A stretch of DNA of 64,000 nt from an uncultured Fibrobacteria bacterium (lineage in GTDB: Bacteria; Fibrobacterota; Fibrobacteria; UBA11236): positions 2,528,001-2,592,000 of the forward strand of contig OY970309.1 of assembly GCA_963716395.1 (NCBI GenBank), in the 5' to 3' direction. Positions 1,220 through 26,401 of this stretch are shown one piece after another. Numbering within the stretch: the stretch's first letter is position 1; the number at the start of each line of letters is the position of its first letter. The notes beneath the pieces are model-generated. The model did not search any database. It saw only the letters and a list, made by a program, of their open reading frames with translations, and had not been told where the DNA came from. A program made the translations under genes and the position numbers.

Positions 1220-2833
1220 ATGCCCACTTATTTGCATCCCGGTGTTTACGTCGAGGAGATCCCGAGCGGATCCAAGCCCATCGAAGGCGTCGGCACTTCG
1301 GTCGCCGCCTTCGTGGGTTACACCCTGCAAGGCCCCATGGACGAGCCCACTTTGATTTCGACGTGGGACGAGTATGAAAAAATTTTCGGGGGCATTCAGG
1401 ATGATGTTCCCGACAGCACCCTGGGGTTGCGAGATCCGATGGGCCACAGCGTGTACGCTTTTTTCCAGAACGGCGGCACCAGCGCCTATATCGTGCGCAC
1501 CACGGTAAAGGATTCCTCGGCGACCTCCGTCGGCAGCATCAACGACGGCGGATCACCGGCCACCAATTATGTCACCTTCACGGTGGCGAACCCGGGAAAG
1601 TGGGGTGATCACTTGAGGGTACGCATCACCCCGAAAGGTACGGTAGCTTCGCCGCCGGCATTCACAGGAACCACCCATTTCACCGTGGTCGTGGGCGAAG
1701 TCGACGACTCCGGAAATAATTTTTCGGCATTGGAAACTTACGGCGATGTCACCTTCGGCGGTTCCGACTCCACCAATATCGATCATGTCATCAGCGATGC
1801 TTCGAGCTTGATTCAGGTAGAGACCGCAGACGCCACCAATGCCTTGTCAAAGCTGGGGAGTCTGTACGCGACCGGGATCGCAGCCACGCCGCCTCAGAGC
1901 TACGTCGAGGTTTCCTTCGCCAACGGCGGCAACGGCACCCTTCCGGATCAAACCGCCTACGACAACGTCTTTGCGCTTTTCACCAAGATCCGCGACATCA
2001 ATATCATTCTCTTGCCGGGACAGGTCTGGCCTGACGGATCGGGCAATGCGGTGATCTCTTCGGCGATTTCGCATTGCGAAAGCATGAAAAGCCGCATGGT
2101 GCTGGTCGACGTGCACCAATCCAGCCTGCTTGGCGATGAGGAGACGGTCACCAACCTCTCGCTGCCCACCGACACCTATTGCGCTCTTTACTATCCGTGG
2201 GTCAAAGTGGCGAATCCGTTCTATAATCCCGACACCAATCCCGGCGCCGAACACACCGTCCTGGTGGCGCCTTCGGCTTTCGGCGCCGGCATGTGGGCCC
2301 GCACTGACGGCCGCCGCGGCGTATGGAAGGCCCCGGCCGGAGTGGAGACTTCACTTTTGGGCGTGGCCGGGCTCGAATTCACCGTCGAAGACGCGGAGCA
2401 GGATTACCTGAACCCGCTGGGTGTGAACGCGCTGCGGAAACTTCCCGGTTACGGCTCGGTGATTTGGGGCGCGCGCACCCTGGCCACCAAGGCCGATCCC
2501 GAGTGGCGCTACATTCCCGTGCGCCGCACCGCCATCTTCATTGAGCAAAGCGTGTATAACGGCATCCAATGGGCCGTGTTCGAACCCAATGACAGCCGCC
2601 TGTGGTCGGCCCTGCGGGTCAACATCGAATCGTTCATGAACGGACTCTTCCGCGCCGGCGCCTTTCAGGGCGACACGGCGGGCGACGCGTATTTCGTGCG
2701 CTGCGGCCTGGGTTCGACCATGGTGCAAGGCGACATCGATCGCGGCCAGGTGATCGTGGTCGTGGGCTTCGCGCCTTTGAAACCCGCCGAATTCGTGATC
2801 GTGAGAATCCAACAACAAGTTGCACAGCAATAA
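1220..2833 (+). CDS. Contractile tail sheath protein (Afp2/3/4-like)
   Basis: MPTYLHPGVYVEE N-terminus; YYPW, RGVWKAPAG, WGART, WRYIPVRR, WAVFEPN, FAPLKPAEFV. Confidence 0.95.
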   Translation: MPTYLHPGVYVEEIPSGSKPIEGVGTSVAAFVGYTLQGPMDEPTLISTWDEYEKIFGGIQDDVPDSTLGLRDPMGHSVYAFFQNGGTSAYIVRTTVKDSSATSVGSINDGGSPATNYVTFTVANPGKWGDHLRVRITPKGTVASPPAFTGTTHFTVVVGEVDDSGNNFSALETYGDVTFGGSDSTNIDHVISDASSLIQVETADATNALSKLGSLYATGIAATPPQSYVEVSFANGGNGTLPDQTAYDNVFALFTKIRDINIILLPGQVWPDGSGNAVISSAISHCESMKSRMVLVDVHQSSLLGDEETVTNLSLPTDTYCALYYPWVKVANPFYNPDTNPGAEHTVLVAPSAFGAGMWARTDGRRGVWKAPAGVETSLLGVAGLEFTVEDAEQDYLNPLGVNALRKLPGYGSVIWGARTLATKADPEWRYIPVRRTAIFIEQSVYNGIQWAVFEPNDSRLWSALRVNIESFMNGLFRAGAFQGDTAGDAYFVRCGLGSTMVQGDIDRGQVIVVVGFAPLKPAEFVIVRIQQQVAQQ

Positions 2834-2848
2834 CCCAGGAGCCACGCC

Positions 2849-3358
2849 ATGCCCGCACCGTTATTCACCGTCAACGCCTACCGCTACGACCCGTACCGCA
2901 CCTTCAAGTTCCAGATTCTCATCGACGGCAAACCCGTGGCCGGCCTGAAGAAAATGGGCGCCCTGAAAAAGAAAACCGAGGTGGTCAAATGGCGCACCGC
3001 CGGCGACCCTTCCAGCGAACGCCTATTGCCCGGCGGCACGAGTTGGGAACCGGTGGCGCTGGAACAGGGGCTGACCCATGATCCGGTGTTCGAGAACTGG
3101 GCCAACCTGGTCAACAATATCCAGGGCGATGCGGCCATGTCGCTCAAGAACTTCCGCAAAGATCTGGTCATCAATGTGCTCAACCTGCAAGGGCAGGTGG
3201 CCATTGCCTACAAGCTGTTCCGCGCCTGGGTGTCGGAATACCAGAGCCTGCCTGACTTCGACGCCGGCACGGTGAACGCGGTGGGCATTCAAACCATCAC
3301 CTTGCAACATGAGGGCTGGGAACGCGACGCCACCGTGCCCGAGCCGACCGAGACTTGA
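2849..3358 (+). CDS. Tail tube protein (T4 gp19-like; Afp1/5)
   Basis: RYDPYRTFKF, LEQGLTHD, FRKD..I, AWVSEYQ, TLQHEGWER; directly after the sheath. Confidence 0.93.
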   Translation: MPAPLFTVNAYRYDPYRTFKFQILIDGKPVAGLKKMGALKKKTEVVKWRTAGDPSSERLLPGGTSWEPVALEQGLTHDPVFENWANLVNNIQGDAAMSLKNFRKDLVINVLNLQGQVAIAYKLFRAWVSEYQSLPDFDAGTVNAVGIQTITLQHEGWERDATVPEPTET

Positions 3359-4188
3359 TCGACCGACGGCAGGCGAACATGCAGTTGCCCGGCGGATGGT
3401 GGGAAAACGGGCGGCGCCGGCGGGATTTTTCCTTCCGCGGCGTGAACGGCGCATTGGAACTGGCCCTGAACGAAGCCGTCGAAAGTGCCGCGTCCTGGCC
3501 CCAAGCCGTAACTTTGGCGTTAACCGCGGCTTTGGACCAATTGGGAGGCCGTTCCGCCGACCCCGCCGCCGTGGCCGGGCTGTGCGTGGCCGACCGCCAT
3601 TTTCTGCTGCGCCGATTACAAATCCACCTCGGCGAGGCGGAACTCTGGCGCCAGGGCGTATGCACGGCCTGCGGCGCCGCCTTTGACTTTCATGTGAGCT
3701 TGGAGGCGTTGCCGGTGGCCGAAGCCGGCGGGGAATTCCCTTTCGCAACCCTGCGCCGGGAAAACCGGGTGTTGCGCTTTCGCCTGCCTACCGGCGCGGA
3801 TCAAGAGGTCGTGGCCGGCCGCGACGATGAAGACGGCGCGCGTCGGGAATTGCTGCGCCGCTGTTGGGTCGCGGAGGGGGAAAGTGATCAGAACGCGGAT
3901 GCGGCCTTCGCGGCCGCGGCCTGGGAGCAAATCGAAGCGGCTTTGGAAGAGGTTTCTCCGGCCGTGATCACCGAAGCCGCGGCGGCCTGCCCCCAATGCG
4001 GGGCCGAAAACCGCGTGGAATTGGATCCCACCGACCTGCTGCGCCGCGGTACCGACCCGCTCTTGCGCGAAGTGCATCAATTGGCCTTGCATTACCACTG
4101 GAGCGAGGCCGACATCCTGGAATTACAGCGTCCGCGACGCCGGCGCTATCTCCACCTCATCGATCAGGCCCGGGGCTTTTCCGGCTAG
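3355..4188 (+). CDS. Tail/baseplate-hub assembly chaperone-like protein with two CxxC and a DUF6760-like C-terminus
   Basis: CTACG and CPQCG; FRLPTGAD; EVHQLALHYHWSEADILEL..RRRRY. Start may be ATG 3379. Confidence 0.7.
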   Translation: MIDRRQANMQLPGGWWENGRRRRDFSFRGVNGALELALNEAVESAASWPQAVTLALTAALDQLGGRSADPAAVAGLCVADRHFLLRRLQIHLGEAELWRQGVCTACGAAFDFHVSLEALPVAEAGGEFPFATLRRENRVLRFRLPTGADQEVVAGRDDEDGARRELLRRCWVAEGESDQNADAAFAAAAWEQIEAALEEVSPAVITEAAAACPQCGAENRVELDPTDLLRRGTDPLLREVHQLALHYHWSEADILELQRPRRRRYLHLIDQARGFSG

Positions 4189-4205
4189 GGCGCTCAGGCA
4201 AGACC

Positions 4206-5282
4206 ATGGGAATTTTATCCGCCGCCGTGCGCGAAGCCCGCCGTTCACAACCGCCCCCGGCGGGGCGGACGTATGCGGCGGCGTCCGCCGTAACTTCGGC
4301 ATTTACCTTGCCCGACGCGGCCGCCACGGCGGAAGCCTCCCTGTCGGTGACGCCAACGCAGAACTTTCAGAAGGAGGGGCGGTTTACGCCCCGAGAGGTG
4401 CCGTCGGACTCGCAGGCTTGGCAAGGCGCTGAGCCGCGGGTTCCCGGCCCATTAAAGGCAGAGTCCGGCCGCACGCCGGGTTCCTCTGCCGTGGATTCGG
4501 AAACGGATCGTCGTATGCATTCCGTGTGGCCTAGTACAAGGGAAGATGATAAGCGGTTGCAGCTTCCTGAAGTCTCAACTCCGTTGGATTCGTTCAATCG
4601 TCCGGTTTCGTCTGCGAGTATTCGCGGTGTGCCGTCTGTGATTGGCTCCGAGTCTGTGGACGTTCCTTCAGATCGAGATGCAAATTTGCCGATGCATGGA
4701 CCTGAGGAAAAGCTGTTGGGACGGCTTCCGGGCCCAGGCACCCCTTCTGAACCTTTCCCCGGCGCTGATTCGGCCGGGCTTTCGCGGCCTGCGGCCGACG
4801 CGTCGTTCCGGGTCGAGTCGCGGCCCGCGGAGGGCGCTGCGCGCAGCCCCACGGAAGCCGAAGCGCCGGCGCCCCGTTCCCCCGAGACCGCCGCCGGTTC
4901 CGTAACTCCGAAGATACGTACGGATTCCGCGGCCTCGCCGCCGCTTCCGCCAGCCGCGGCTTCCGTCTTGCCGGCGTCTCCCATAGCGGCGGTCCGGCCC
5001 GCGCCGGTGCCGAGCCCTTTGCGCCCGGCGGCCGGACCGGCCTTTCCGGCCGCACAAATCGAAGCGTGGGAGCATCGCCTGCAAGCTTTGGCCGATCGCC
5101 TCGAGGCCGTGGCCGGCCGCGAAATCGGCCGGCGGCTGCCGGGTTCCGCCGTCGCCTCGGGGCCGGTGGTGCGCATCGGCCAGGTCGACGTGTTCATCAC
5201 CGCGCCGGTCGTTCCGGCCAAGCCGGCGGCCGCGCAATCGGATCGCGCCTTCCTGAGCCGCAACTATTTGAGGCGGGTTTGA
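4206..5282 (+). CDS. Pro/Ala/Ser-rich disordered eCIS-associated protein
   Basis: Low complexity; C-terminal VVRIGQVDV and FLSRNYLRR; sits before the DUF4255 gene. Start chosen at ATG 4206. Confidence 0.65.
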   Translation: MGILSAAVREARRSQPPPAGRTYAAASAVTSAFTLPDAAATAEASLSVTPTQNFQKEGRFTPREVPSDSQAWQGAEPRVPGPLKAESGRTPGSSAVDSETDRRMHSVWPSTREDDKRLQLPEVSTPLDSFNRPVSSASIRGVPSVIGSESVDVPSDRDANLPMHGPEEKLLGRLPGPGTPSEPFPGADSAGLSRPAADASFRVESRPAEGAARSPTEAEAPAPRSPETAAGSVTPKIRTDSAASPPLPPAAASVLPASPIAAVRPAPVPSPLRPAAGPAFPAAQIEAWEHRLQALADRLEAVAGREIGRRLPGSAVASGPVVRIGQVDVFITAPVVPAKPAAAQSDRAFLSRNYLRRV

Positions 5283-5285
5283 ACC

Positions 5286-6305
5286 ATGGCCTTGGTGGCG
5301 TCGTCGTTGTCGCAGATCTGCAAGGCCATTTCGAGCTTTGTCAGCGCGGGCCTGAACACGGGCGGGGTCACCGTGTTCGTGACCTTGGGCAACCCCGGCG
5401 AATCCGTGGCGGGAGAAAGCGAAGGCCACCGCCTCAACCTGTTCTTCTTCCGCTTCGAAACCTATCAGTTCAACGCCGACGTGCTGCCGGGTGAGAATTT
5501 GCTGATGCGCATGCATTGCATCGTCACGCCCTTCGCCGTGCTCGAAGACAGCATCAGCGCGGGCGAAAACGATTTGCGGCTGGTGGGCGAAGTGCTGCGC
5601 ATCTTCCACGAACAGCCGGTGTTCCTGCTCAGCGCCGACTCCCAGCAATTCGAAGTGCAGGTGATTCTGCAAAACCTGGGATTGGATCAAATCAACCAGC
5701 TTTGGTCCACGCAAGGCGAAACCCTGTACCGCCCGTCGCTGTTATACGAAGTGTCGCTGGCGCCGGTGATCCCCAACAAAAAATCGGTGACCGCTCCCTT
5801 GGCCGGCGCCTTGGGCCTCGACGTCGAAGCCGATTTGGAGACGGTCGCGACGGGCAGCGTTGCGGCCGCGCCGCCGGACGTGGCGGCCGCGCGGGTCGAC
5901 ACCGCCCGCGAGGAGTGGGCGCCGCTCATTGCGTTCGTGTCGGGAGGCGCCTGCCTACAATCGGTGAGCTTCGCCCTGGGCAGCCCAGAGCTGTCCGCGT
6001 TCACGCCGGCGGTGTGGATTGCGGGGTTGTTGGGGGCCGCCGTGCAATTGCGCTGGGATGTCTGGGATTCGGTTTCGGGTTGGCAGACGCAGAGCAGCAC
6101 CACGCCCGCGACGGTTGCGACCGCGTCTCTGGATCCGGCGCAGGCCGCCTCGGCGACCACCGTTACCGCGGCGCTACCCTTTACCGAACATGCGGGCCAG
6201 GCCGTGCTCTATGCCGTGCGCAGCTATGCGCGCGGTTTTGACGGAACCAGCGTGACCGTGCGCAGCAACCCCTTACTGGTCAATCTGTACGCGGGGGGGC
6301 CATGA
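5286..6305 (+). CDS. DUF4255/Pvc16-like tail terminator (cap) with C-terminal extension
   Basis: LNLFFFRF, IVTPF, LVGEVLRIFHEQPV, INQLWS...YRPSLLYEVS pattern. Confidence 0.8.
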   Translation: MALVASSLSQICKAISSFVSAGLNTGGVTVFVTLGNPGESVAGESEGHRLNLFFFRFETYQFNADVLPGENLLMRMHCIVTPFAVLEDSISAGENDLRLVGEVLRIFHEQPVFLLSADSQQFEVQVILQNLGLDQINQLWSTQGETLYRPSLLYEVSLAPVIPNKKSVTAPLAGALGLDVEADLETVATGSVAAAPPDVAAARVDTAREEWAPLIAFVSGGACLQSVSFALGSPELSAFTPAVWIAGLLGAAVQLRWDVWDSVSGWQTQSSTTPATVATASLDPAQAASATTVTAALPFTEHAGQAVLYAVRSYARGFDGTSVTVRSNPLLVNLYAGGP

Positions 6306-7663
6306 TCGCGCCCACCCCGAAAGCTTCCCCCCTGGATAAAACGACCGCCGCGGATTTGCTCCCGGAATGGGAACGCCTGCAATTCCTGGGTTTTTGCCTG
6401 TCGCAAACCCGCCTGGGGCGGGAAATCCAGGCAACGGAACTGCGCCGCCTGCAGGAGTTGCAAAGCCAGGTCGACCAAGCGCGCGGCGACGGGGTGTGGA
6501 CGGCGGTACTGCCTGCGCCGTCGGCGGCTTTGTCGCCGCTCGAACTCGACGTGCTGGCTTGTGTGGTGGGCCCCGAAGTGGAGCCGCGTTTGGGTTGGAT
6601 GTATCAAACCCTGCAGCCGGGTATGGCGCACCCCTACCCGTCACGAGCCCTCATTCAGGAATTGCTGGCGCTGGATTCGCCCTGGGTGGAAAAACTGCAC
6701 GGGGCGCTGCTGCCGTCGGCGCCGCTGTGCGCCGGCCGATTGATCCGCGTCGAAGGCGAGCATCCCTACAAGCCCCTGACGCCCGAGCCGTGGATTGCGG
6801 CGCGCATTCTGGGCCGCGCCCAAAGCGATCCCCCGCCTCCCGGGGCCGTGGCCGTCAAGGTGCAGGCCACCTGGGAGACCTTGGTGTTACCCCCGTCGCG
6901 CAAGGCCATGCTGCGCGAATTCCTGTTATGGATCCGCCATCGCGAACGCGTGGTGAACCAATGGGGCGGCGGGGCGGTGGGCGGACCGGTGGCGCTGTTC
7001 TCGGGTCCGTCGGGCACGGGCAAAACTCTGGCGGCCTCGGTGATCGCGTCGGAATTGGGATGGCCCCTGTACCGCGTGGATCTCGGCCGGCTGGTGAGCA
7101 AATACATCGGCGAAACCGAGCAGAACCTGAACGCGCTTTTCGAAGCGGCGCATGGCCGGCCCATGGTCTTGCAATTCGACGAGGCCGACAGCCTATTCGC
7201 CAAACGCGGCGACGTGAAGGAAGCGCGCGATCGCTACGCCAACATGGAAGTCAGCCATTTGCTGGCCCGCATCGAGTCGCATGACGGCCCCTGCATTCTC
7301 ACCACCAATTTGCGCAAGCAATTGGATTCGGCGTTTTCGCGCCGCTTCCAGATGGTGCTGGAATTCCCGCGGCCCGACGCCCGTTCGCGCGCCCTCCTCT
7401 GGGCGCAATTGCTGCCGCCGCGCGCGCCGCGCGCTCCCGAAGTCGATCCGGAATTTTTAGGCTCGTCCGCCAGCCTGACCGGCGGTGGCATCCGCAATGC
7501 GGCCTTGCACGCCGCCTACATGGCCGCCGATCAAGACGGCCGCATCGAACTGCGTCATGTGGCGCTGGCGGTGTGGCGCGAAATCACCAAGGAAGGCCGC
7601 GAAGCTTCGTTTCAGGAGTTGGGGCCCTTGGCCGCGCATTTGCCGGAGAACCTGTATGATTGA
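6302..7663 (+). CDS. AAA+ ATPase (Afp15/Pvc15-like)
   Basis: Walker A GPSGTGKT, RVDLGRLVSKYIGETEQNL, Walker B FDEADSLF, DRYANMEVSHLL. Confidence 0.92.
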   Translation: MIAPTPKASPLDKTTAADLLPEWERLQFLGFCLSQTRLGREIQATELRRLQELQSQVDQARGDGVWTAVLPAPSAALSPLELDVLACVVGPEVEPRLGWMYQTLQPGMAHPYPSRALIQELLALDSPWVEKLHGALLPSAPLCAGRLIRVEGEHPYKPLTPEPWIAARILGRAQSDPPPPGAVAVKVQATWETLVLPPSRKAMLREFLLWIRHRERVVNQWGGGAVGGPVALFSGPSGTGKTLAASVIASELGWPLYRVDLGRLVSKYIGETEQNLNALFEAAHGRPMVLQFDEADSLFAKRGDVKEARDRYANMEVSHLLARIESHDGPCILTTNLRKQLDSAFSRRFQMVLEFPRPDARSRALLWAQLLPPRAPRAPEVDPEFLGSSASLTGGGIRNAALHAAYMAADQDGRIELRHVALAVWREITKEGREASFQELGPLAAHLPENLYD

Positions 7664-7889
7664 TATCACGCGTCTCCGCCTGCACTTGCCCGCGGGCTTC
7701 GAGCGCCGCGCCGCGCGCATCGCGCGCCTGGTGGGCGACGAACTGGCGCGCCTGCCGGTTGCTTCCGAAGTCCACGCGGATTCGCTGCATGTGCGCGGAC
7801 TCGAAATTTCCCCCGCGCTGTCGGACCGCCGCGCGGCGGCCCGCATCGCCTCCGCCATCCACCGCCAAGCCCAGGCACCGCAAGGTTAG
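7656..7889 (+). CDS. Small hypothetical eCIS protein (77 aa)
   Basis: MIDITRLRLHLPAG...ARLVGDELA...AARIASAI; overlaps the ATPase end; in frame with ORF 7485..7889. Confidence 0.6.
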   Translation: MIDITRLRLHLPAGFERRAARIARLVGDELARLPVASEVHADSLHVRGLEISPALSDRRAAARIASAIHRQAQAPQG

Positions 7890-8576: not shown

Positions 8577-8578
8577 CC

Positions 8579-17009: not shown

Positions 17010-20000
17010 ATGAAGACCCAAATCTCACGCAACAGCCTCCAGCCCGGCAAGCGTTACTCCGGCGTGTACCAGCAGCAGGGGCGGATGATCACCGACGCCG
17101 ATTGGAACGAGCTTACCGATCTCGACAAGCACCGGCTGTGGAACGCGTTGCGGGACGCCATCGGCAGCGGTGCGCCTACCGCCGGCGGCTTGGCCGTCAA
17201 CCCCGACAAAACCTTGCAGCCCGGCGTGCTCTATGCCGAAGGCGTGCCGGCCAAACTCGAAGGTGGCTCACCCGTGGCCTTCACCGCCCAGCCGGATTTT
17301 CCCGGGGCTCCGGCTTTGCCGGCCAACACGTTCACCTTGTATGCCGACGTCTGGGATCGCGCCGTGACTTCGCTGGAGGATTTGGTCTTGGTCGATCCGG
17401 GATTGCATGGGGCCGACACGTGCAGCCGCACGCAAACCATGCTGCAGGTGAAGTGGTGTCCCAACGCCGGCGATCCCGCGGACTTGAACAAAAATCCGCC
17501 CAAGGGCAACGGCCGGCTCGCGTTGCAATTGCGCACGACCTTTTCCGGCGGGGATCCCTGCGACCCCTGCGCGGCGCAGGTCAACGTCGACAACAAGGTG
17601 GGGAATTACCTGTTCCGCGTCGAAGTGCACGATCGCTACCAACAAGGCGGCCATGACTTTCTCGTGCTCAAATGGTCGCGCGACAACGGCTCCGAGCAAT
17701 ACCCGGTGGCGTCGGCGCCGCCCGATTTCAAACAGGGCGACTGGATTTACGAATTCTTCAACGACGTCACGGAGAAAAACCTGGGCGTGCATTTGGCCGC
17801 GGGATTTACCCCCTTGCGCGGCAAGCTGGTGGATGGCTACACCGTTCCCACCGCCCCCGCCGATCCCAAAACCTATGGGCGCCAATGGGACGGCTGTTGC
17901 ACCATTGACCTGACCGCCAAAACCTTGGCGGCCACCGCCACGCAGCCCGCCAAAGACAGAGGCGTGGCGTTGAGCACCACCTACGGGCTCGGAGCCCAAG
18001 GCCTGGTGACCTTGGGCGCTGCATTGCAAATCAATCTCGACTTGCTCGTCTTCAATTTGCAGTTGGATGGCTGCAACTTTGTGGCCGGCGACTATTGGCT
18101 GGCCACGGTGCGCGAAGCTACGCAAAGCGCGGGGGATTTCGTGCTGGGAACTTCGTTGACCTCCGGGGTCCCGCCCCTCGGCATTCACCACCATTATGTG
18201 TGGCTGGCCGACATCGACGGGTCGGGCGCGGTGATCGCGCCCACCGACGCGGAGAAGCGGCAATTCCATTTTCCGCCGCTGACCAATCTTCAGGCCTACG
18301 ACGTGGGGTTCACGAACAATTGCGCGACGCTGTTCACCGGCGCCCAAAACGTGCAGCAGGCGCTTGATGCGCTGTGCTTAATCGCTGCCGACGACATCGC
18401 CTATACCGTTCCAGGCTGCCCGGCGCCTTCGGTGGCGGCGTTGATGGCGGCCTCGGTGGCGGGGTGGCCCGATTTCGACGGTGACCACAAGGTTACGGTG
18501 AAAGACATGCTCGACGCTTTGCTGTGCAAACTGAGCGCTTCGTACCTGCCCTACAACGGCGCGATTCAGGGACCGCGCTGGACGGCGATTAAAAGCGAGG
18601 CCACGCCGTCGACCCCGCCGGGCACGGTGCAGCAAGCGCTCGACGATCTCGTGCAATACCTCGACTCCAAGGACATTCCGCATTATATGCAGAACTGCCC
18701 CGCGGGTTCGGAGCCCACGGTGCGTACGGCCTTGGGGTTGACCGGGGCGCAATACCCGGTCAGCGACATCTTGACCGCGCTGTTATGCCAGAAGCAGGCC
18801 GGGGGATCGAGCTGCTGCGTGTGCATCGGCCCGGGCGGCGACTTTCAGACCTTGCAAAACGCGCTCGACGCCTTCGCGGCCAATCCGGCGCCATGGACCG
18901 ATCTCATCCTATGCCTCAAGCCCGGCACCCACGTGCTGCTGGGTAACGTCGAAGTCACGGGCAAGCGTTCGGTGAAAATCACCGGATCGGGCACCTCGGC
19001 CAGCATCATCCAATTCCAGGGGGCGACTTTTCACATCCAGGCCCAGGAGATCGCTTTTGAAGATGTGGCCGTGGTCGCCACCCAGGCCGGTGGGCAACTG
19101 ATCCTGGAGGCGCCGTCGGTGTCGGCCGAAGATTCGCTGTTCCGGCGGGCGGGCAACAATCCCACCGCGCCCGCCTTGATCGCCGTGAACGCCGCGAGCA
19201 ATGGCGGCAGCGTGTTTTTCCAGAACAACACTTTGCAAAGCACCTGGCAGCGGGTGAGGCCCGGCATCAATCTCGGCAGTTATGCTCCGGTGTCCGTGGT
19301 GGGAGCCAAGACGGCGGCGGCATTCCAGAATTTGTTTGCCGATGAGACTTTGTCCGATCCCGACAAGTTCAACGCCGCCTTGATCGATCTTTCCAACCAA
19401 GTCGCGGCCCTGCCGCCAAGCACGCGCACCGCCTGGGTCCAGGCCGCGCCCAAAGCCTTGGCCGCGGCGCCGGCCAAGGCCAAAACCAAATCGGGGGCCA
19501 AATCGTCGCAGCACGCCTCGACGGCCAAGGCCAAAAAGGCTGCGCCGGCTCCGCTCAAAAGCGATGCGAAATCGGCGTCCTTCGCCATCAATGTCATCGG
19601 CAATATCACGTCGTTTCCGGTGATCCGGAACAACGGGGTCAACATCGTGGCCTCGACCCAGAATTTTTACACCCACCTCACCCAGGCCAAACTCAACCTG
19701 CCTTCGGTCCAGAGCGATTTGGCCGGCCTGGTGCTGGGTCTCATCGAATCGGGGTTCTGCCAGGCTTTGACTTTGAGTTCGATCCAAGTCGGCGGATCGC
19801 TGGCCTACAATACGGTGAATGGCGAGGTCGTGGTGCTCAACAACGGCGCGGCCGGAGCGGATATCGGCAAAAACGGCGTGCTGCAGCAGGTGGGGAGCCT
19901 CGTGGTGGCAAGCGTATCTCCCATCAGCGCCAACGGCGCCAAGTTGGATCTCGTGCACAATTCCATCGCGCGTTTTTCACAGCAGGTGCCGGCCGCCGCT

Positions 20001-20276
20001 ATCAGCAGCGGCCGGCTGGTTGCGGCGTTGCCGGCGTATTCCATTCTGAACGTGACGGAGAACGTATTCGGCAACGACGAGAATGCCTTGGCCGCGGGCG
20101 TGGTGCGGCTCAGCGGCAACCACTTCGCCGGCGACAAATCCTTGCCCGGAGCCACCCTGCTCGGCAACCAGTTTCTGGCCTTGGGCAACAGCGCGGATGC
20201 CGGGGCCGCCGGGCGCTATCACGCGGCGACGGTTTCGTTCGCCGCCAACCTGATGGTCTTGAGCGTGTTGGCTTAA
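17010..20276 (+). CDS. DUF6519 domain tail fibre with repeats and a C-terminal beta-helix-like region
   Basis: SR...KRYSGVYQQQGRMITDADWNE, YADVWDR.V, NYLFRVEVH, KWSRDNGS, GDYW, PLGIHHHY, FPPLT; repeated VQQALD-type motifs. Confidence 0.85.
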   Translation: MKTQISRNSLQPGKRYSGVYQQQGRMITDADWNELTDLDKHRLWNALRDAIGSGAPTAGGLAVNPDKTLQPGVLYAEGVPAKLEGGSPVAFTAQPDFPGAPALPANTFTLYADVWDRAVTSLEDLVLVDPGLHGADTCSRTQTMLQVKWCPNAGDPADLNKNPPKGNGRLALQLRTTFSGGDPCDPCAAQVNVDNKVGNYLFRVEVHDRYQQGGHDFLVLKWSRDNGSEQYPVASAPPDFKQGDWIYEFFNDVTEKNLGVHLAAGFTPLRGKLVDGYTVPTAPADPKTYGRQWDGCCTIDLTAKTLAATATQPAKDRGVALSTTYGLGAQGLVTLGAALQINLDLLVFNLQLDGCNFVAGDYWLATVREATQSAGDFVLGTSLTSGVPPLGIHHHYVWLADIDGSGAVIAPTDAEKRQFHFPPLTNLQAYDVGFTNNCATLFTGAQNVQQALDALCLIAADDIAYTVPGCPAPSVAALMAASVAGWPDFDGDHKVTVKDMLDALLCKLSASYLPYNGAIQGPRWTAIKSEATPSTPPGTVQQALDDLVQYLDSKDIPHYMQNCPAGSEPTVRTALGLTGAQYPVSDILTALLCQKQAGGSSCCVCIGPGGDFQTLQNALDAFAANPAPWTDLILCLKPGTHVLLGNVEVTGKRSVKITGSGTSASIIQFQGATFHIQAQEIAFEDVAVVATQAGGQLILEAPSVSAEDSLFRRAGNNPTAPALIAVNAASNGGSVFFQNNTLQSTWQRVRPGINLGSYAPVSVVGAKTAAAFQNLFADETLSDPDKFNAALIDLSNQVAALPPSTRTAWVQAAPKALAAAPAKAKTKSGAKSSQHASTAKAKKAAPAPLKSDAKSASFAINVIGNITSFPVIRNNGVNIVASTQNFYTHLTQAKLNLPSVQSDLAGLVLGLIESGFCQALTLSSIQVGGSLAYNTVNGEVVVLNNGAAGADIGKNGVLQQVGSLVVASVSPISANGAKLDLVHNSIARFSQQVPAAAISSGRLVAALPAYSILNVTENVFGNDENALAAGVVRLSGNHFAGDKSLPGATLLGNQFLALGNSADAGAAGRYHAATVSFAANLMVLSVLA

Positions 20277-20292
20277 AAAATCGGAGGGTGCA

Positions 20293-22032
20293 TTGCGGAT
20301 ATTCCGGAGCAAAACCAGAATCCGTCGCGGCGATGGCGGCGTTTCGGTCCCGGAATCCGGGCCCATCCCGGCTCCGGGTCAGCGCGAAAAGATCCGCCAG
20401 GTTTTAAACGGCGGCCGCGTGCAGGCCAAGCTTGAAGTCAGTGCGCCGGAAGACGCGAGCGAACGCGAAGCCGATCAGGTGGCCGAGCGGGTGATGCGGG
20501 CTCCGGATTCCCCGGGCGATCCGTCGGCGGCGCCGCCTCGGATCCAAAGAAAGTGCGCCGACTGCGAAGAGGAAGAGAAAAAAGATCAGGGCGTGGTACA
20601 CACCAAGGCCGGTGGTGCCGGCGCACAGGCAACCGGCGCCCCGGCCGCCGTGAACGCCGTGCGCTCCGGCGGCCATCCGCTGCCCGGCGCCGAACGCGCA
20701 TTTTTCGAGGCCCGCTTCGGCCGGAGTTTCGGCCAAGTGCAGTTGCATACCGATGCGGGCGCGGCCGACGCTTCACGCGCACTGCACGCCCAGGCCTTCA
20801 CCTATAAGAATCATATCGCCTTTGCAACGGGCCGTTATGCCCCGGGCACGGAGTCGGGACGGAAATTGCTGGCCCATGAGCTGACCCATGTCGTGCAGCA
20901 GAATTCCGGCGACGCCACGCAATTGCGGCGCTTTCCCGGTCCCCCGGCCGCTTTGCCGGCGCCGGTCCACACGCCTGCGCCCGCCTCCACGCCGAAGGCG
21001 CCTTTGCCTTTACCGCCGCACAAAAATCCCGCGACCCAGGCCAAAACCAGCGCTCCGGCTTTTTCGGTTTCCAAATCCAATTATCTCGCCCTGCTGTCGG
21101 TGGCTTTGGATCAGATGCAAGGCTCGTTGGTGGCGGCCAACACCTTGTCCGGTTTCGTGGAACCCATGCTGCGCGCCATGGCGGCCCATGCCGAGTGGAA
21201 GGATGCCGCGGGCAAGGTCGGCGGCGGGGACTTCGTGGAATACAAATTGCCTTGGGATCCCAAACGAAAATTGAAGTTGAAGCTCATTCTCGACGATCAA
21301 GACAAACCGCCATTGGCGGGGCTGTTTCATGCCACGGGCTCCGACGCGGCCACCATCACGCTGTTTATTCGCGCCAATGACGACGCCGACACCATGAGCC
21401 AAACCGCCTACCACGAATCCTTACATTTGATCACCTGGCTGCGCGGCAATTCTTCGGCGAAAAAACCGTTGGGCGATTCCATGGGGCTGAACTCTTCGCA
21501 AAAAGAGGTCTTGGACAACTTGAATATTCAGTCGCAAGCGCCCAAGTTGAAAGTCATCCGCCGCCGGGTGGAGCGCATCGCCGAAACCGTCAACGCTACG
21601 CGCGCTTCCGACAAGCAAATTCCCGCTGCCAAAATCGATTCCATGGCCGAATGGTTATTGCAGGAATACCTGGTGCGCATTGAATCGGAAGTGTATCGGC
21701 TTTTCGGGATTCAGGAACAAGTGAACAAGTTGCCTCCAGGCCAAGGCATGGTCTTCAAAGCCACCGATCCCGGTTCGTTTTTCAAGGCATCGGATGTCGA
21801 GATTTATCTCTTTGATCAAAGCGGTGTCTTCAAGCCCGAAGACAAAGCCGCCCTCACCGAACTGGATCTTCAGGACATCGCTGCCATCGCCAAAATTTTC
21901 GATGATGGCGTGGAGTGGCTGGTGAAAAGACGTTTCAGTTCCTTCGCCTTTCGCACGGAACACCGCCCCCAGGTGGAAATCTTGCAAATGCCTAAACGCA
22001 GCTTCGTGGATAAAATCCAACCCGCGGATTAA
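20293..22032 (+). CDS. DUF4157 (eCIS core) protein with C-terminal second HExxH domain; candidate effector
   Basis: QAKLEVS..D..EREAD..A; FFEARFG..F..V.LHT; AFT...IAF; LLAHELTHVVQQ (20875-20889); HESLH (21412-21426). TTG start after GGAGG. Confidence 0.85.
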   Translation: MRIFRSKTRIRRGDGGVSVPESGPIPAPGQREKIRQVLNGGRVQAKLEVSAPEDASEREADQVAERVMRAPDSPGDPSAAPPRIQRKCADCEEEEKKDQGVVHTKAGGAGAQATGAPAAVNAVRSGGHPLPGAERAFFEARFGRSFGQVQLHTDAGAADASRALHAQAFTYKNHIAFATGRYAPGTESGRKLLAHELTHVVQQNSGDATQLRRFPGPPAALPAPVHTPAPASTPKAPLPLPPHKNPATQAKTSAPAFSVSKSNYLALLSVALDQMQGSLVAANTLSGFVEPMLRAMAAHAEWKDAAGKVGGGDFVEYKLPWDPKRKLKLKLILDDQDKPPLAGLFHATGSDAATITLFIRANDDADTMSQTAYHESLHLITWLRGNSSAKKPLGDSMGLNSSQKEVLDNLNIQSQAPKLKVIRRRVERIAETVNATRASDKQIPAAKIDSMAEWLLQEYLVRIESEVYRLFGIQEQVNKLPPGQGMVFKATDPGSFFKASDVEIYLFDQSGVFKPEDKAALTELDLQDIAAIAKIFDDGVEWLVKRRFSSFAFRTEHRPQVEILQMPKRSFVDKIQPAD

Positions 22033-22045
22033 GCCGGCGCGCTTT

Positions 22046-25000
22046 ATGCAAACCTTCGCTCCGGCCAAAACCAAGTCGGCCGCCGGCCCTAGGCACCGCT
22101 CCGCGCCCGCCACCGTGGGCCCGCCCGTGCATCGCGCGCCTCCGCCTTGGGCGGACGCCGCGCTGACTTCGCTGGGCGTCCTAGCCAAACTCAAGGTGAG
22201 CCAACGCGATGAACCGGCCGAACAAGAAGCCAATCAGATTGCCGACCGCATCGTGGCCATGTCCGACTCTTCGGCGGCTACCGAAGCGCCGCCCAATGCG
22301 GCGGCGCCTCCGCCTTCGAGGCCGCCGCCGCCGGGGACGCCGGACGCTTCGTCCGGATCGTCGGCTTCTTCTTCTGCTGCGACTGCTGCGGGTTCGACTC
22401 CGCCGCTGAAACCCGTGAATCGGTATTTGCTGGCGGCCGGGTTGCACCGTTCCGAATGCGAGTCTTGCGAAGAAGAATCCGAACCCATGGTGCACACCTC
22501 GCGCGACCGCGATGCGCCGGACGAAACGCTGGCACGGCTCGGCGCGCGGGTTTTCGCCTTGCGGCAACGCGGTGCGCCGCTGCCGTCGGAGGTGCGCACC
22601 TTTATGGAGCCGCGTTTCGGCCGCGATTTTTCCGGCGTGCGCATTCATCTGGGCACCGAACCCGAGGCGCTCTCGCAATCTCTCCATGCGCGCGCCTTCA
22701 CCGTGGGCGAGCATATCGCTTTCGGACCCGGGCAATACCGTCCCGACACCGAAACGGGCCGCAAGCTGATCGCGCATGAGTTGACTCACGTGGTGCAGCA
22801 ACGCGGCGGGCAGCCCGCGGCGAAACAAGTCCCGGCCGTGCGTCCGGAAAAACCCAAGGTGCAGCGCGGCGTCATTTCCTGGCTCGGCGATCGGGCCTCG
22901 GATGTCGGCGGCGCCGTCTCCGACGCGGCCCACGATGTCGGTCACGCCGTTTCCAGCGCGGCCTCGGCCGTGGGAGGCGCGCTCGCCGATTTGGCTTGGG
23001 CCGCGGTGCGTGAATTGGCGCCGAGTCTGGAACCCATTTTGCGTGAAGGGCCGTTCAACTGGTTGAAGCGCCAGGTCGGCAACGCCTTCCACTCCCTCAT
23101 CAGTGCCGTGACAAGCCTGTTACCTCCGGGCGTGGTGCAGGTGTTGAATACCGTATTCGGCGGCCTGATGACGCGCGCCTCGCAAATCGTCGGCGCTTTG
23201 GCTTCGGGCGATTGCGGCCCGTTGTTCCAGGCCCTGCGCGATTTGAAAGACTTCATCAGCCAAGTGGCGGGCGAAGTCTGGGATAAGCTGGTCGACTTTC
23301 TCCATCCCATCGGCGATTTCTTTGCGCGTTTGTGGAACGGTTATGGCGCTCCGGCCGTGCAATGGTTGCGCGAATTCGCCGGCGAGGTGTGGCAGGTCAT
23401 TTCGGATTTGGGCCATGACATCTGGGAATGGATTCAACCTCTTCGCAACGGCGTTCGGAGAATTTGGAATTGGGTGAAAGAAAAGCTTTTCGGCCCCGAT
23501 GACGATTCTTCCGGAGAGAGTTCGGGCGGTATCATCCATTGGATCACCGAAAAAGCCGGCGAGGCCTGGGATTGGGTCAAAGAGCAAACCCGGCCGGTCT
23601 GGCAGCCGATTTCGCGCGCCCTCGCCACCGTGCGTTCGTTGATTCCGCCGGCCTTCATCCGCCGCCTGGGCGAATCATTCCAGCATCTGGGCGCGCAATT
23701 GAACCAGGCCGGCTCCAATCTCGGCGACGATGGCGACGACGTAGCGCAAAACCGCGCGGCCCTGGCTTCGGTGTTGCCTTCAGTGCAGCAGGTTTTGGCG
23801 GCCGCGCGCGGGGCCATCGTGTCGGCCAAGACCTGGGTGTTGGAAACTATGGGCTCGATGGCCTCGCAATTCAGCAACTTCCTCTCCGAGCTGCGCAACT
23901 CCAGCATATTCAGCCCGGTGGCCGGGGCGCTTGCGTGGCTTGAAGGCGTGGGCAATGATCTCAACTCCTGGGCGCAAGACAAGGTGGGCGGGCTGTTCGA
24001 TTTCGTCATCCGCGCCTTCGATTATGTCTCGCCTTTCATCGAAAAGATGGTGGAACTGGTGCGCCAGGTGATTGCGGTGATGGCCGACATTCTGCGTTTG
24101 CCCACGCTGATTCTCGGCAGCATCTGGAATCTCATTCCGGCCTGCATCCGCAACCCCATCCGCGACTTTTTCATCAACCAGATTTTGCGCCGCATTCCGG
24201 TGTTCAGCTTCCTGCTCGATCTGCCGGATCTCTGGGCCCGGGTCGAGGCCGTGGCTTTGCGCATTCTGCGCCAGGTATTTGTTGACGGCAATTTGGCCGG
24301 CGCCGCCTGGACTTTTTTCCGCAACATGCTGCGCCTCATCGGCATCCCACCCGAATTGGTGGTGTCGATTCTGGCCAAGGCGGCTTCGGCGCTGGGCGAC
24401 ATCCTCACCAATCCCATTCGTTTCCTCACCACCTTGCTGTCGGGCGTGGTGCACGGCTTCGGCCAGTTCTTCGATCATATCGGCACGCATCTTTTGAACG
24501 GCATCACGGGCTGGCTGTTCGGCGCCATGCAAGGTGCGGGCATCACGCCGCCGCATGAATTCAGCCTGCGATCCATACTCGGCATCGTGCTGCAAATCCT
24601 CGACATTTCCGTGGATCGGATTTTCGCGCGCCTGGCGCGGCGCGTGAGCCCCGAAATCGTGGCGCGCCTGCGCCAGGCCGTGAATATCGCCACGGGCGTA
24701 TGGGAATGGGTGGCCGTGCTCATTAACGAAGGCCCAGGCGGCCTCTGGCGCCTGGTGCAGGATCGGCTCAGCAACCTGTGGAGCACCGTGATCAGCACGG
24801 CCATCAGTTGGATTACGCAACGGGTGATCGCCGCGGGCATCCGCTGGCTGGCGGGCTTTCTCGACATCTCGGGCATCATGCCGGTGATCAATACCTTGAT
24901 CGCCGTTTATCGCGCCATCCAAAGCGCCGTGGCCTATATCCGGCAAATCCTCGAAGTGGTGAACACGGCCCTCGACGGCATCGGTGCCATGGCGCGCGGC

Positions 25001-26401
25001 GATCCGGGGCCGGCCGCGAATTTCGTCGAGCGCGCCCTGGCGGGCATCGTGCCCGTGGCCATCGGCTTCGTGGCCAACCAGGTGGGCCTGGGCGACATCA
25101 GCGCGCGCATCCGCGAAGTGATCGAAGGCGTGCGCGCCATGGTCGATCAAGCCATCGACTGGCTCATCGACCGGGCTTTGCGGGCCGGCCGCGCCTTTCT
25201 CGACATGTTGCGGCGCGGGGTGACCGCGGTGCGCGGCGGCGTGGCGGCCCTGCGCCAGTGGTGGCGCAGCCGGCGGACGTTTCGCACCGACAGCGGGGAA
25301 GAGCACTCCCTGTATTTCACCGGGAGCGGAGGTTCGGCGCGCCTGATGATTGCCAGCGATCCGCAGCCGTATCAAACCTTCATCGCCGGAGTCGATGTCC
25401 CCGCCTCCAAACGCGCGGACAAACAAGAGGCCCTGCGCATTGCGGGAGAGTTGGATACGGCCGTTCGCGCGGCCGCGGCTCCGGCGGCGGGAAGCGGCGC
25501 GGCTGCAACCGGCGGAGGTGCCGTCGCCGTAGACCCTTCGACGCAGATCAATCAGCTGTTGGCCGATTTGGCATCGGTCACCGCGCGCTTCATACCCGCC
25601 AACCGAAACCGATCCAGCGTGCCGGTTTTCGGCCCAAGGGTCGGCGGATTCGGAAGTTCGGTGCGCGAATCCGTGTTGGGCCCCGATCGCCTGGAAACCG
25701 GAAGCACGCCTTCGGTGGAGGATAATCCGCATTGGCAGGCCTTACGGGCCAGGCGGCAGGGAGGCCGTTCCTACTTCGTGCGCGGGCATTTGCTCAACCA
25801 CCATTTGGGTGGGCCGGGTAACACCTGGGATAACTTGACGCCGATGTTCCAGGATGACAACGGGGCCTTTGAACGGGGATTCGAAGCGCCCGTCAAGGAT
25901 GCGGTGCGCGGCGGCCGGGCGGTCAATTTTATCGTCACGGCCAGTTACGGCCGTTCGCCCAATCCGAATATGGCAACGCTCCGCCGGGGAGGCGTCCGCG
26001 ATCAGGCGGTGGCGCGGATCATGGAGGCGGAACAATTCGTTCCGACCGGGGTGACGGCTTCCGCGAAGTTTACGGACCAGCCCTCGCAATCGCCGGTGAG
26101 CCCCGATCCGAAACCGTTCCCATTCACTTTTCCGACCACGCAAGACGCTTACGATCTGGAAGGTGCGCCCCGGGAAAACCGCTGGCTTTCCGATATGAAC
26201 GCCGAGCAAATCCAAAGCGACTTCGGGGTGACGGCTACGCAGGCGAGTGCGATTGCCGCGGCCCTGCATTCCAGCCCCGCGCCCCGAACCTGGGAGGCGT
26301 TGCGCGACGCCTACCACGCCGTGGACGGGCGGCTGGCGCTGGGAGCGTTGGATGGTATTCAAAACTCCGAGCGCTTCAACGTGCGGTTGTTCAGCCGATA
26401 A
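22046..26401 (+). CDS. DUF4157 protein with long helical region, C-terminal non-specific (His-Me) endonuclease and HhH-like tail; candidate effector
   Basis: MEPRFGRDFSGVRIH, LIAHELTHVVQQ (22775-22789); Trp-periodic helical middle; RGHLLNHHLGGPG...NLTP (from 25781). Confidence 0.85.
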   Translation: MQTFAPAKTKSAAGPRHRSAPATVGPPVHRAPPPWADAALTSLGVLAKLKVSQRDEPAEQEANQIADRIVAMSDSSAATEAPPNAAAPPPSRPPPPGTPDASSGSSASSSAATAAGSTPPLKPVNRYLLAAGLHRSECESCEEESEPMVHTSRDRDAPDETLARLGARVFALRQRGAPLPSEVRTFMEPRFGRDFSGVRIHLGTEPEALSQSLHARAFTVGEHIAFGPGQYRPDTETGRKLIAHELTHVVQQRGGQPAAKQVPAVRPEKPKVQRGVISWLGDRASDVGGAVSDAAHDVGHAVSSAASAVGGALADLAWAAVRELAPSLEPILREGPFNWLKRQVGNAFHSLISAVTSLLPPGVVQVLNTVFGGLMTRASQIVGALASGDCGPLFQALRDLKDFISQVAGEVWDKLVDFLHPIGDFFARLWNGYGAPAVQWLREFAGEVWQVISDLGHDIWEWIQPLRNGVRRIWNWVKEKLFGPDDDSSGESSGGIIHWITEKAGEAWDWVKEQTRPVWQPISRALATVRSLIPPAFIRRLGESFQHLGAQLNQAGSNLGDDGDDVAQNRAALASVLPSVQQVLAAARGAIVSAKTWVLETMGSMASQFSNFLSELRNSSIFSPVAGALAWLEGVGNDLNSWAQDKVGGLFDFVIRAFDYVSPFIEKMVELVRQVIAVMADILRLPTLILGSIWNLIPACIRNPIRDFFINQILRRIPVFSFLLDLPDLWARVEAVALRILRQVFVDGNLAGAAWTFFRNMLRLIGIPPELVVSILAKAASALGDILTNPIRFLTTLLSGVVHGFGQFFDHIGTHLLNGITGWLFGAMQGAGITPPHEFSLRSILGIVLQILDISVDRIFARLARRVSPEIVARLRQAVNIATGVWEWVAVLINEGPGGLWRLVQDRLSNLWSTVISTAISWITQRVIAAGIRWLAGFLDISGIMPVINTLIAVYRAIQSAVAYIRQILEVVNTALDGIGAMARGDPGPAANFVERALAGIVPVAIGFVANQVGLGDISARIREVIEGVRAMVDQAIDWLIDRALRAGRAFLDMLRRGVTAVRGGVAALRQWWRSRRTFRTDSGEEHSLYFTGSGGSARLMIASDPQPYQTFIAGVDVPASKRADKQEALRIAGELDTAVRAAAAPAAGSGAAATGGGAVAVDPSTQINQLLADLASVTARFIPANRNRSSVPVFGPRVGGFGSSVRESVLGPDRLETGSTPSVEDNPHWQALRARRQGGRSYFVRGHLLNHHLGGPGNTWDNLTPMFQDDNGAFERGFEAPVKDAVRGGRAVNFIVTASYGRSPNPNMATLRRGGVRDQAVARIMEAEQFVPTGVTASAKFTDQPSQSPVSPDPKPFPFTFPTTQDAYDLEGAPRENRWLSDMNAEQIQSDFGVTATQASAIAAALHSSPAPRTWEALRDAYHAVDGRLALGALDGIQNSERFNVRLFSR

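Follow-up and report, generated by a model that had tools for sequence, protein, structure and literature searches.

One subtype of the extracellular contractile injection systems (eCISs), which had previously been missed, is marked by DUF6519, a fibre baseplate-anchor domain since named eBAP5 that was catalogued in 658 genes and typically lies downstream of a Tail_P2_I gene (PMC12923769, Nat Commun 2026). A role of Tail_P2_I as the eBAP5 adaptor was proposed in the same study from AlphaFold modelling, and neither a solved structure nor a functional test was found for members of this eBAP5/Tail_P2_I subtype in the literature covered by our search. As to cargo, Geller et al. describe as typical an arrangement in which a long linker and then a toxin domain come after DUF4157 (PMC8213781), and for Cgo1 and Cgo2, the cargos of the Algoriphagus machipongonensis system AlgoCIS, the N-terminal region is reported to be required for loading into the tube lumen, with the AAA+ protein Alg15 implicated (bioRxiv 10.64898/2026.05.27.728243). 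In the contractile injection system (CIS) of Streptomyces davawensis, the endonuclease of the cargo protein Tme is described as EndA-like, with DRGH and H-N-N motifs (PMC11126660). Here we analyse a CIS locus in a 64,000-nucleotide stretch of DNA, called the window throughout, which spans positions 2,528,001-2,592,000 of a closed 3.75-Mb bacterial genome (contig OY970309.1). Judged by its genes, the locus forms a complete CIS operon that belongs to lineage II of the eCIS superfamily and falls into the catalogued DUF6519 (eBAP5) plus Tail_P2_I subtype. Our preferred reading, to which we assign a probability of roughly 0.6, is that it encodes a complete, apparently functional lineage II injection system of this subtype that was acquired horizontally and for which we propose an extracellular cargo-injection mechanism.

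Gene content and integrity of the locus

The operon occupies positions 1220-26401 of the window on the forward strand (about 25 kb), from the start of the sheath gene to the end of the last DUF4157 gene, and holds 18 intact co-directional genes after revision of three starts and addition of one small gene (Table 1). All gaps within the operon measure 45 nt or less; 4-nt ATGA-type overlaps join cap to ATPase, hub to spike and the long J-like to the Tail_P2_I gene, and there is one overlap of 8 nt. A first-pass annotation, made from the letters of the window, had given exactly these coordinates and about 18 packed co-directional genes, and Pfam, NCBIfam and PHROG searches agreed with it. Its gene set also held, but three starts were moved to 3379, 4206 and 11254, where in-frame start codons lie just past the preceding stop, the LysM gene was redefined as 8579-8869, and a 77-aa gene at 7656-7889 had been overlooked in an apparent gap. 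Third-position guanine plus cytosine (GC) content of the 18 open reading frames (ORFs) ranges from 0.69 to 0.83, typical of host coding DNA.

Matches above the curated Pfam cut-offs were obtained for the sheath, gp19-type tube, Pvc16_N, AAA, Phage_base_V, gp25, Tail_P2_I, DUF6519 and, in two genes, eCIS_core families, and PHROG assignments were consistent with every structural gene. The core set of such systems was found in full, comprising a sheath and gp19-type tube, a Pvc16_N terminator with an Afp15-type ATPase, a baseplate of gp25, J-like and VgrG-like proteins, and DUF4157 genes at the 3' end. Catalytic motifs are kept throughout: Walker A in the ATPase (at residue 235), HExxH in both DUF4157 domains and again in the C-terminal domain of cargo 1, and the RGH and Asn residues of the cargo 2 nuclease. 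The genome holds no second CIS: Pvc16_N is matched once, DUF4157 occurs in two genes only, and the structural genes have no paralogues outside the locus. The locus contains no PAAR gene, and none of its proteins is a convincing candidate for a membrane anchor or transmembrane adaptor. No Tss genes were found in the locus, and a Pfam scan of 20 kb upstream and 37 kb downstream detected no linked capsid or terminase gene; the proposal that this is an eCIS-superfamily locus with DUF6519 rather than a prophage or a type VI secretion system (T6SS) was thus upheld.

Among solved structures, the best relative of the sheath is Cis2 of Streptomyces coelicolor (8bky, E = 2.4e-84), which aligns over its full length (residues 1-532 against 1-524), followed by the sheath of a haloarchaeal T6SS-like CIS (9ezm, 2.7e-81); the Afp, PVC, AlgoCIS and tCIS sheaths align with it in the C-terminal domain only. 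Kitasatospora and Streptomyces sheaths from our genome scan are 36-37% identical to the window sheath and the solved sheaths are distant, so that near-identity to an already characterised system, which the first-pass annotation would have counted against its proposal, was not observed.

Two further genes lie downstream of the tube gene. The product of the first resembles the T4_baseplate family: of 36 homologues aligned from related loci, 28 match PF12322 (best 2.6e-18), and two CxxC pairs (C95, C98, C204 and C207) are invariant in the alignment; a PDB profile search with this family returned noise only and no relative. The second gene encodes a protein rich in Ala (17%), Pro (14%) and Ser (11%) for which no Pfam or PHROG family was found. 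Its C-terminal motif recurs in most of 30 related loci and is missing from the ORFs picked in four of these 30, where the wrong frame was probably picked. The order of sheath, tube, this pair and terminator mirrors the FI-FII-E-T-U order of phage P2, in which the gene at 3379-4188 would hold the position of the tail assembly chaperone. Because of this resemblance to P2, we regard the first protein of the pair as possibly chaperone-like and the second as a candidate length determinator. The small 77-aa gene belongs to no PHROG family and had blastp matches at E<=0.01 in 19 loci (best 1.4e-19) when compared with the ORFs of 80 named loci, and the tube initiator is 44-78% identical to the syntenic gene of related loci.

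Baseplate, fibre and cargo proteins

The baseplate genes include a VgrG split into hub and spike and two J-like wedge genes, of which the long one gave no match at E<=0.01 in a phmmer search against the PDB. The DUF6519 gene starts 22 nt past the Tail_P2_I gene. Residues 1 to about 809 of this putative fibre are conserved in relatives, a homologue search with residues 600-1088 (the distal 489 aa) found none, and a phmmer search of the fibre against the PDB gave a single weak match (0.075). The distal part of the protein is lineage-specific.

Both cargo proteins begin with a low-complexity N-terminal region and share a short motif upstream of DUF4157 as well as 34% identity through the DUF4157 domain. 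In a set of 1.84 billion proteins, 75 representatives of the cargo 1 C-terminal domain (about 340 aa) were found at E<=0.001; its HExxH motif is invariant in the alignment, and 27 of 32 alignment members carry eCIS_core. Apart from one weak SprT-like match, no other Pfam family was found in the alignment members, and a PDB profile search with the domain gave noise only. The conserved motif suggests a zincin-type effector domain, that is, a predicted zinc metallopeptidase.

Cargo 2 is the largest ORF of the locus, with DUF4157 at residues 178-255. Ten PHROG families match the protein, and the nine of tape-measure type (phrog_58 best, at 1.3e-18) do so over its centre (residues approximately 294-1093), which contains three hydrophobic segments. 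With residues 260-1240 as query, 134 relatives were obtained; among the 120 listed, most carry eCIS_core, 35 carry PF13930 and five carry HHH_3. The C-terminal domain matches PF13930 (Endonuclea_NS_2) at 5.9e-5 and 23.7 bits, under the cut-off of 27, and four of its residues, namely the RGH His, two Asn and one Glu, do not vary in an alignment of 13 sequences. We consider this domain a predicted DNase, in an architecture like that of Tme.

Table 1. Features of the CIS locus and its immediate surroundings in the window, in order of position.
Feature	Window coordinates	Strand	Length (aa)	Basis
AT-rich leader, putative promoter/regulatory region	1040..1219	+		sequence read; function inferred
Contractile sheath, Cis2/Afp2-4 equivalent	1220..2833	+	537	PF17482 5.7e-12; PF04984 4.3e-9; phrog_23 'tail sheath' 1.8e-61
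Inner tube protein, Cis1/Afp1 equivalent	2849..3358	+	169	PF06841 Phage_T4_gp19 3.7e-36; TIGR02241 107.6 bits (cut-off 62.4)
T4_baseplate-family protein, zinc-ribbon-like	3379..4188	+	269	PF12322 0.006; phrog_150 'baseplate hub' 5e-4
Pro/Ala/Ser-rich protein, candidate tail-length determinator	4206..5282	+	358	position; C-terminal motif
Tail terminator/cap, Afp16/Cis16 equivalent	5286..6305	+	339	PF14065 Pvc16_N 2e-17, 64 bits (cut-off 27)
AAA+ ATPase, Afp15/Cis15 equivalent	6302..7663	+	453	PF00004 9.5e-26 (91 bits); PF22977 WHD 2e-6
Conserved small gene	7656..7889	+	77	ORF overlapping ATPase stop; blastp
Tube initiator/adaptor, Afp5/Cis5 equivalent	7926..8576	+	216	PF19266 CIS_tube 3.2e-5, 24.2 bits (cut-off 27)
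LysM/tail-X-like baseplate protein	8579..8869	+	96	PF05489 Phage_tail_X 1.8e-4; phrog_7145 'baseplate wedge subunit' 2.2e-12
gp27-like hub, N-terminal half of split VgrG	8871..10037	+	388	NF033848 VgrG_rel 5-183/547, 6.3e-9; phrog_52 'tail protein' 1.6e-10
gp5-like spike, C-terminal half of split VgrG	10034..10864	+	276	PF04717 Phage_base_V 9.9e-23; NF033848 376-543/547, 2e-11
gp25-like wedge protein	10866..11252	+	128	PF04965 GPW_gp25 5.6e-12
Short baseplate-J-like wedge protein	11254..12441	+	395	TIGR02243 1.3e-20, 73.6 bits (cut-off 155.8); phrog_6 'baseplate wedge subunit' 6.5e-8
Long baseplate-J-like wedge protein, Afp11/Cis11 equivalent	12456..15380	+	974	TIGR02243 2.1e-39, 135.6 bits (cut-off 155.8); phrog_219 1.9e-22; phrog_6 2.6e-19
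Tail_P2_I baseplate protein, proposed fibre adaptor	15377..16987	+	536	PF09684 1.9e-6, 28.2 bits (cut-off 20.6)
DUF6519 (eBAP5) putative tail fibre	17010..20276	+	1088	PF20129 1.2e-16, 60.9 bits (cut-off 22.4), residues 1-153
Cargo 1: low-complexity N-terminal region, DUF4157, C-terminal HExxH domain	20293..22032	+	579	PF13699 4e-29, 101 bits (cut-off 22)
Cargo 2, Tme-like: N-terminal region, DUF4157, tape-measure-like centre, Endonuclease_NS_2-like DNase (predicted), helix-hairpin-helix tail	22046..26401	+	1451	PF13699 2.8e-32, 111 bits (cut-off 22)
Hydrophobic ORF, uncertain status, may not belong to system	26447..26881	+	144	translation only

Distribution and origin

The sheath protein had no match in any of 11 congeneric genomes (74-100% complete, 1.9-2.7 Mb). 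The interval between recG and carB varies within the genus. This region, which measures 36 kb in the window (950-37300) and holds the CIS locus, a cbb3 oxidase (cbb3/fixGHI) cluster and an aldo-keto reductase gene, is about 1.5 kb long in congener G005 and about 6.5 kb in G004, and after carB the gene order of G005 is the same as that of the window. In the congeners, the DsbD_2 gene, with which the cbb3 cluster of the window begins, is found on a different contig or, in G007, some 40 kb away from recG.

Species-representative genomes were scanned for sheath relatives, which gave 591, and the best 80 of these were retained. The whole gene order is common to loci from Rhodocyclaceae, Desulfobulbus, Ideonella, Syntrophus, Nitrosomonas, Marinobacter, Holophagales and others, and identity to loci of other phyla (Pseudomonadota, Thermodesulfobacteriota, Acidobacteriota) is 31-83% across the structural genes and mostly at least 40%. 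In five of five genomes checked, DUF6519 lies about 16 kb 3' of the sheath gene, the order J-P2_I-DUF6519-DUF4157 is kept, and relatives have the same 18-gene architecture. Two genomes of the same family as the host (G013 and G017) also have this architecture, at an identity of only 20-49%. In a FastTree phylogeny of 79 sheath rows, the window falls into a clade of 34 rows (SH-like support 98) with members from Pseudomonadota, Thermodesulfobacteriota, Acidobacteriota and Nitrospinota and one Chitinispirillaceae metagenome-assembled genome; the three kin sheaths that passed the full-length filter fall outside this clade, and the filter dropped partial kin loci (L085, L087-L090). Since congeners lack the locus and its nearest relatives are found in other phyla, it appears to have been horizontally acquired from another phylum and to have ameliorated since. 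Its composition is near that of the host (GC 63.4% against 59.8% genome-wide; tetranucleotide distance at the 85th percentile).

These results argue against the suggestion of the first-pass annotation that the locus is domesticated, and we do not regard it as an ancestral domesticated element. The observations that had surrounded this suggestion were confirmed. The locus sits among housekeeping genes, with recG and, farther away, ffh, rimM, trmD and ilvC upstream, and DsbD_2, the cbb3 oxidase genes, carB, fab genes and leuS downstream; and around it we found no mobility genes, no tRNA and no flanking repeats that would mark an insertion.

The host had been placed in the Fibrobacterota-Chlorobiota-Bacteroidota (FCB) group, possibly in Fibrobacterota, and our data bear this out. 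The genome has 26 matches to the C-terminal sorting domain of the type IX secretion system (T9SS), 19 of them over the cut-off, against none in 14 control genomes, and 11 strong TIGR02147/DUF4423 (Fsuc_second) paralogues scattered over the chromosome; TIGR02147 is a paralogous family of Fibrobacter succinogenes. Because of the T9SS domains, the 11 Fsuc_second paralogues and the genome set of the phylum, the host is probably a member of Fibrobacterota. A CarB tree that included 15 further rows placed the window with its two congeners and with no other row; the remainder form a polytomy, in a topology distorted by stop-to-stop ORFs. Across 296 species genomes of the phylum, a sample that includes one genus of 101 species, Pvc16_N was found in 45 and DUF6519 in 10. 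CIS loci are not rare in Fibrobacterota, and a full-text literature search, within the text it covered, found no paper on a contractile injection system in Fibrobacter.

Mode of action

In the mechanism we propose, a baseplate composed of the split VgrG hub and spike, gp25, two J-like wedges, Tail_P2_I and the LysM protein would nucleate a tube-and-sheath tail, whose length would be set by the Pro/Ala-rich protein and/or the tape-measure-like cargo, and which the Pvc16_N terminator would close. The AAA+ ATPase may help to load both DUF4157 cargos into the tube lumen via their low-complexity N-terminal regions. Particles would then be released, probably via lysis of the producer, and binding of the DUF6519 fibre to a target surface would be followed by contraction and expulsion of the cargo. 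Cargo 2 would deliver a DNase, with its tape-measure-like hydrophobic centre possibly aiding passage across the target membrane, and cargo 1 would deliver the predicted zinc metallopeptidase. We infer extracellular action from three features of gene content: the presence of a fibre gene, the lack of a membrane-anchor candidate in the locus, and the fact that Streptomyces clusters are described as fibre-less.

Several points weigh against this reading. The closest solved sheath is that of the cytoplasmic S. coelicolor CIS, the sole characterised Tme-type system is reported to act in the development of its own producer (PMC11126660), and DUF4157 cargos also serve a membrane-anchored haloarchaeal system (PMC11566945). 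The particle, its expression and its release are predicted from the genes, and the fibre assignment draws on a bioinformatic catalogue. A search of sequencing runs for this genome listed no RNA run, which counts neither way, and one DNA run with a small share (0.19) of the sampled words. The proteins of the locus score under the curated cut-offs for CIS_tube, TIGR02243 and PF13930, and a lysis cassette and a DNase immunity gene were looked for in the locus and not found. Because the nearest solved sheaths are those of the cytoplasmic S. coelicolor Cis2 and the haloarchaeal T6SS-like CIS, the gene content identifies a CIS but is no proof of extracellular action on its own. The same applies to the combination of DUF4255, an Afp15-like ATPase and DUF4157, which had been put forward as the mark of an extracellular system: it does mark the CIS superfamily but not the extracellular mode, given that haloarchaeal and Streptomyces CISs are also reported to use DUF4157.

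The alternative that fares best, although we consider it unlikely, is a cytoplasmic CIS of the Streptomyces kind that fires within or against the producer's own envelope under stress, such that the DNase would bring about cell death, lysis or a release of extracellular DNA (eDNA) that helps kin. The full-length match of the sheath to S. coelicolor Cis2 speaks for it, as do the DNase gene without an adjoining immunity gene and the Tme of S. davawensis, which has an equal layout and is reported to drive eDNA release and development of the producer (PMC11126660). It is countered by the DUF6519/eBAP5 fibre gene that follows Tail_P2_I, since Streptomyces clusters are described as having a membrane protein instead of a fibre gene (PMC10066040), by the lack of a transmembrane adaptor in the locus, by the split VgrG, which is a single ORF in subtype IId (PMC6899500), and by the sheath tree, in which the window sheath stands outside the Streptomyces/Kitasatospora clade.

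A membrane-anchored, contact-dependent T6SS-like system, as in Halogeometricum or T6SS subtype iv, would accommodate the second-best solved sheath match, to a haloarchaeal system that is reported to secrete DUF4157 proteins (PMC11566945); with no anchor candidate in the locus, a fibre gene present and a complete canonical T6SS already in the genome, we judge it improbable. We give a slightly smaller chance still to the idea that the locus is an island which, once acquired horizontally, fell silent or began to decay and now serves no function. Its absence from 11 of 11 congeners would suit such an island, but none of the 18 ORFs is disrupted, neighbouring genes abut closely or overlap, third-position GC resembles that of the host, and the Walker A, HExxH and RGH/Asn motifs are conserved. 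Finally, a defective prophage tail module or R-type tailocin, to which the phage-tail homologues of every structural gene and the P2-like order of sheath, tube, chaperone-like, tape-measure-like and terminator genes might point, is highly implausible in view of Pvc16_N, the Afp15-type AAA+ ATPase and the DUF4157 cargos, and of the lack of capsid, terminase, integrase and lysis genes, tRNA and att-like repeats nearby.

Returning to the extracellular injection system that we favour, a more far-reaching version of it is conceivable but doubtful: in this lineage II, eBAP5-type clade, cargo 2 would be ruler, ejected membrane-crossing device and toxin in one and replace the missing Afp14, the HExxH domain of cargo 1 would represent a new family of zincin effectors, and transfer between phyla would carry the complete cassette in one piece. 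If this were true, the host would offer a natural system in which to ask why one cell keeps both a CIS and a T6SS. Irrespective of this extension, the locus documents the apparent transfer, across phyla, of an entire 25-kb nanomachine to a lineage in which it is missing from the close relatives. The eBAP5/Tail_P2_I clade is abundant in environmental genomes, and the copy in the window is compact, intact, located in a closed genome and equipped with two modular cargos, so that structural studies, or engineering through exchange of C-terminal domains, could reasonably start from it. The co-residence of a CIS with a canonical T6SS is likewise documented here; current understanding is not overturned.

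Unlinked T6SS, flanking genes and other observations

The canonical T6SS lies about 755 kb away, at approximately 3,309,500-3,323,300 (L137), and includes TssK, TssM, TssA, TssB, TssC, Hcp, TssF and TssG. TssJLM-type genes elsewhere in the genome had been named as a possible refutation of the CIS assignment, and a TssM-type gene is indeed present; the assignment is nevertheless unaffected, because this T6SS is unlinked and has its own sheath and Hcp. According to Chen et al., eCIS and T6SS rarely share one genome (PMC6899500).

The only PAAR ORFs of the genome are two near-duplicate orphan genes that combine PAAR with Peptidase_M23, at 54,773-56,491 (L135:6773-8491) and 1,180,984-1,182,813 (L136:6984-8813). 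Each is followed by small family-less ORFs, possibly immunity genes, and one lies near a DUF772 transposase gene. These proteins are probably T6SS effectors; given that a canonical T6SS exists in the genome, we rejected as a default the idea that they provide the tips of the CIS.

Directly 5' of the sheath gene, a leader of about 180 nt is strikingly AT-rich in a context of 60-63% GC and is likely the regulatory region of the operon. It contains no match to a sigma-70-type consensus and none to Rfam, and terminator-like sites occurred at chance level. Between the last cargo gene and the DsbD_2 gene, the 144-aa ORF (Table 1) encodes one strongly hydrophobic segment, matches no Pfam or PHROG family and has no counterpart in related CIS loci or in the congeners. 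With neither a family nor conservation, it was dropped as a candidate immunity protein or holin.

Farther downstream, the fused cbb3 gene ccoN-ccoO is split between frames at window positions 28486-30658, with the break near 29468-29517: COX1 positions 1-331 are encoded in one ORF, and positions 333-397 together with FixO in an overlapping ORF of another frame. The cause is a frameshift in the gene itself or else a mistake in the assembly. An XPB/Rad25-type helicase (ERCC3_RAD25_C, Helicase_C_3, ResIII), of a kind probably uncommon in bacteria, is encoded at 50759-52462 among housekeeping genes, and one of the TIGR02147 paralogues lies 8 kb upstream of the window (L122:11285-12250, reverse strand). 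At 3.75 Mb the genome is larger than those of the 11 congeners, and a considerable gain of DNA compared with the rest of the genus seems likely for this species.

Comparison with known systems

The classical T6SS is characterised by a TssB/TssC sheath, Hcp and TssJLM, none of which is encoded within 1220-26401. With the lineage I systems Afp and PVC of Serratia and Photorhabdus, the locus shares sheath, tube, gp25, a J-like protein, ATPase and cap, and the C-terminal domain of its sheath matches Pvc2 at 3.3e-47 and Afp3 at 2.7e-45. Afp and PVC, however, have three sheath genes, whereas the window locus has one, its VgrG is split and its cargos are of the DUF4157 type; no homologues of Afp12, Afp13 or Afp14 were detected in the locus.

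In the scheme of Chen et al. as described in PMC6899500, PAAR is absent only in subtype IIb, two afp11 copies occur in IIa and IIc, afp12/13-like genes occur in IIa and IIb, and VgrG is a single ORF in IId. Measured against these features, the lack of an Afp14 homologue places the locus in lineage II, the split VgrG fits IIa, IIb or IIc, the lack of PAAR fits IIb, the two J-like ORFs fit IIa or IIc, and the fibre and P2_I genes fit IIa or IIb. The Streptomyces-type IId features, namely no fibre, a contiguous VgrG and a CisA-type adaptor, were not found. The cytoplasmic CIS of S. coelicolor, which shares lineage II and the best full-length solved sheath, differs accordingly, in that its cluster is described as lacking a fibre gene and encoding the membrane protein CisA, whereas the window locus has a fibre gene and a split VgrG (PMC10066040, PMC6899500).

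Two systems resemble the locus in their cargo. AlgoCIS, too, pairs a short with a long cargo (498 and 1228 aa, against 579 and 1451 aa in the window), and in all four proteins DUF4157 stands between an N-terminal region and a C-terminal domain; an AAA+ ATPase and a Pvc16-type cap are also common to both systems. The AlgoCIS sheath is more distant (7adz, 9.9e-45, C-terminal part only), and its baseplate and fibre are of different types, with Alg12/Alg13-type parts. The Tme protein of S. davawensis, which we compared by its published description only, is, like cargo 2, encoded by the largest ORF of its cluster and has an N-terminal DUF4157 and a tape-measure-related centre that contains hydrophobic helices; at its C-terminus, where cargo 2 has the predicted DNase, lies an endonuclease whose motif is of the (D)RGH type (Nat Commun 2024, PMC11126660). 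Tme has 2247 aa and is encoded upstream of the baseplate genes, whereas cargo 2 has 1451 aa and is the last gene of its operon; the S. davawensis cluster is also described as having a PAAR-like tip, which the window locus lacks.

The closest correspondence is to the eBAP5/Tail_P2_I subtype itself. As in the catalogued members, DUF6519 stands at the N-terminus of a large protein encoded directly 3' of the Tail_P2_I and J-like genes, and DUF4157 genes close the operon at its 3' end. The published catalogue links eBAP5 mainly to Actinobacteriota (PMC12923769), whereas the locus described here comes from a probable member of Fibrobacterota and clusters with loci of Pseudomonadota, Thermodesulfobacteriota and Acidobacteriota.

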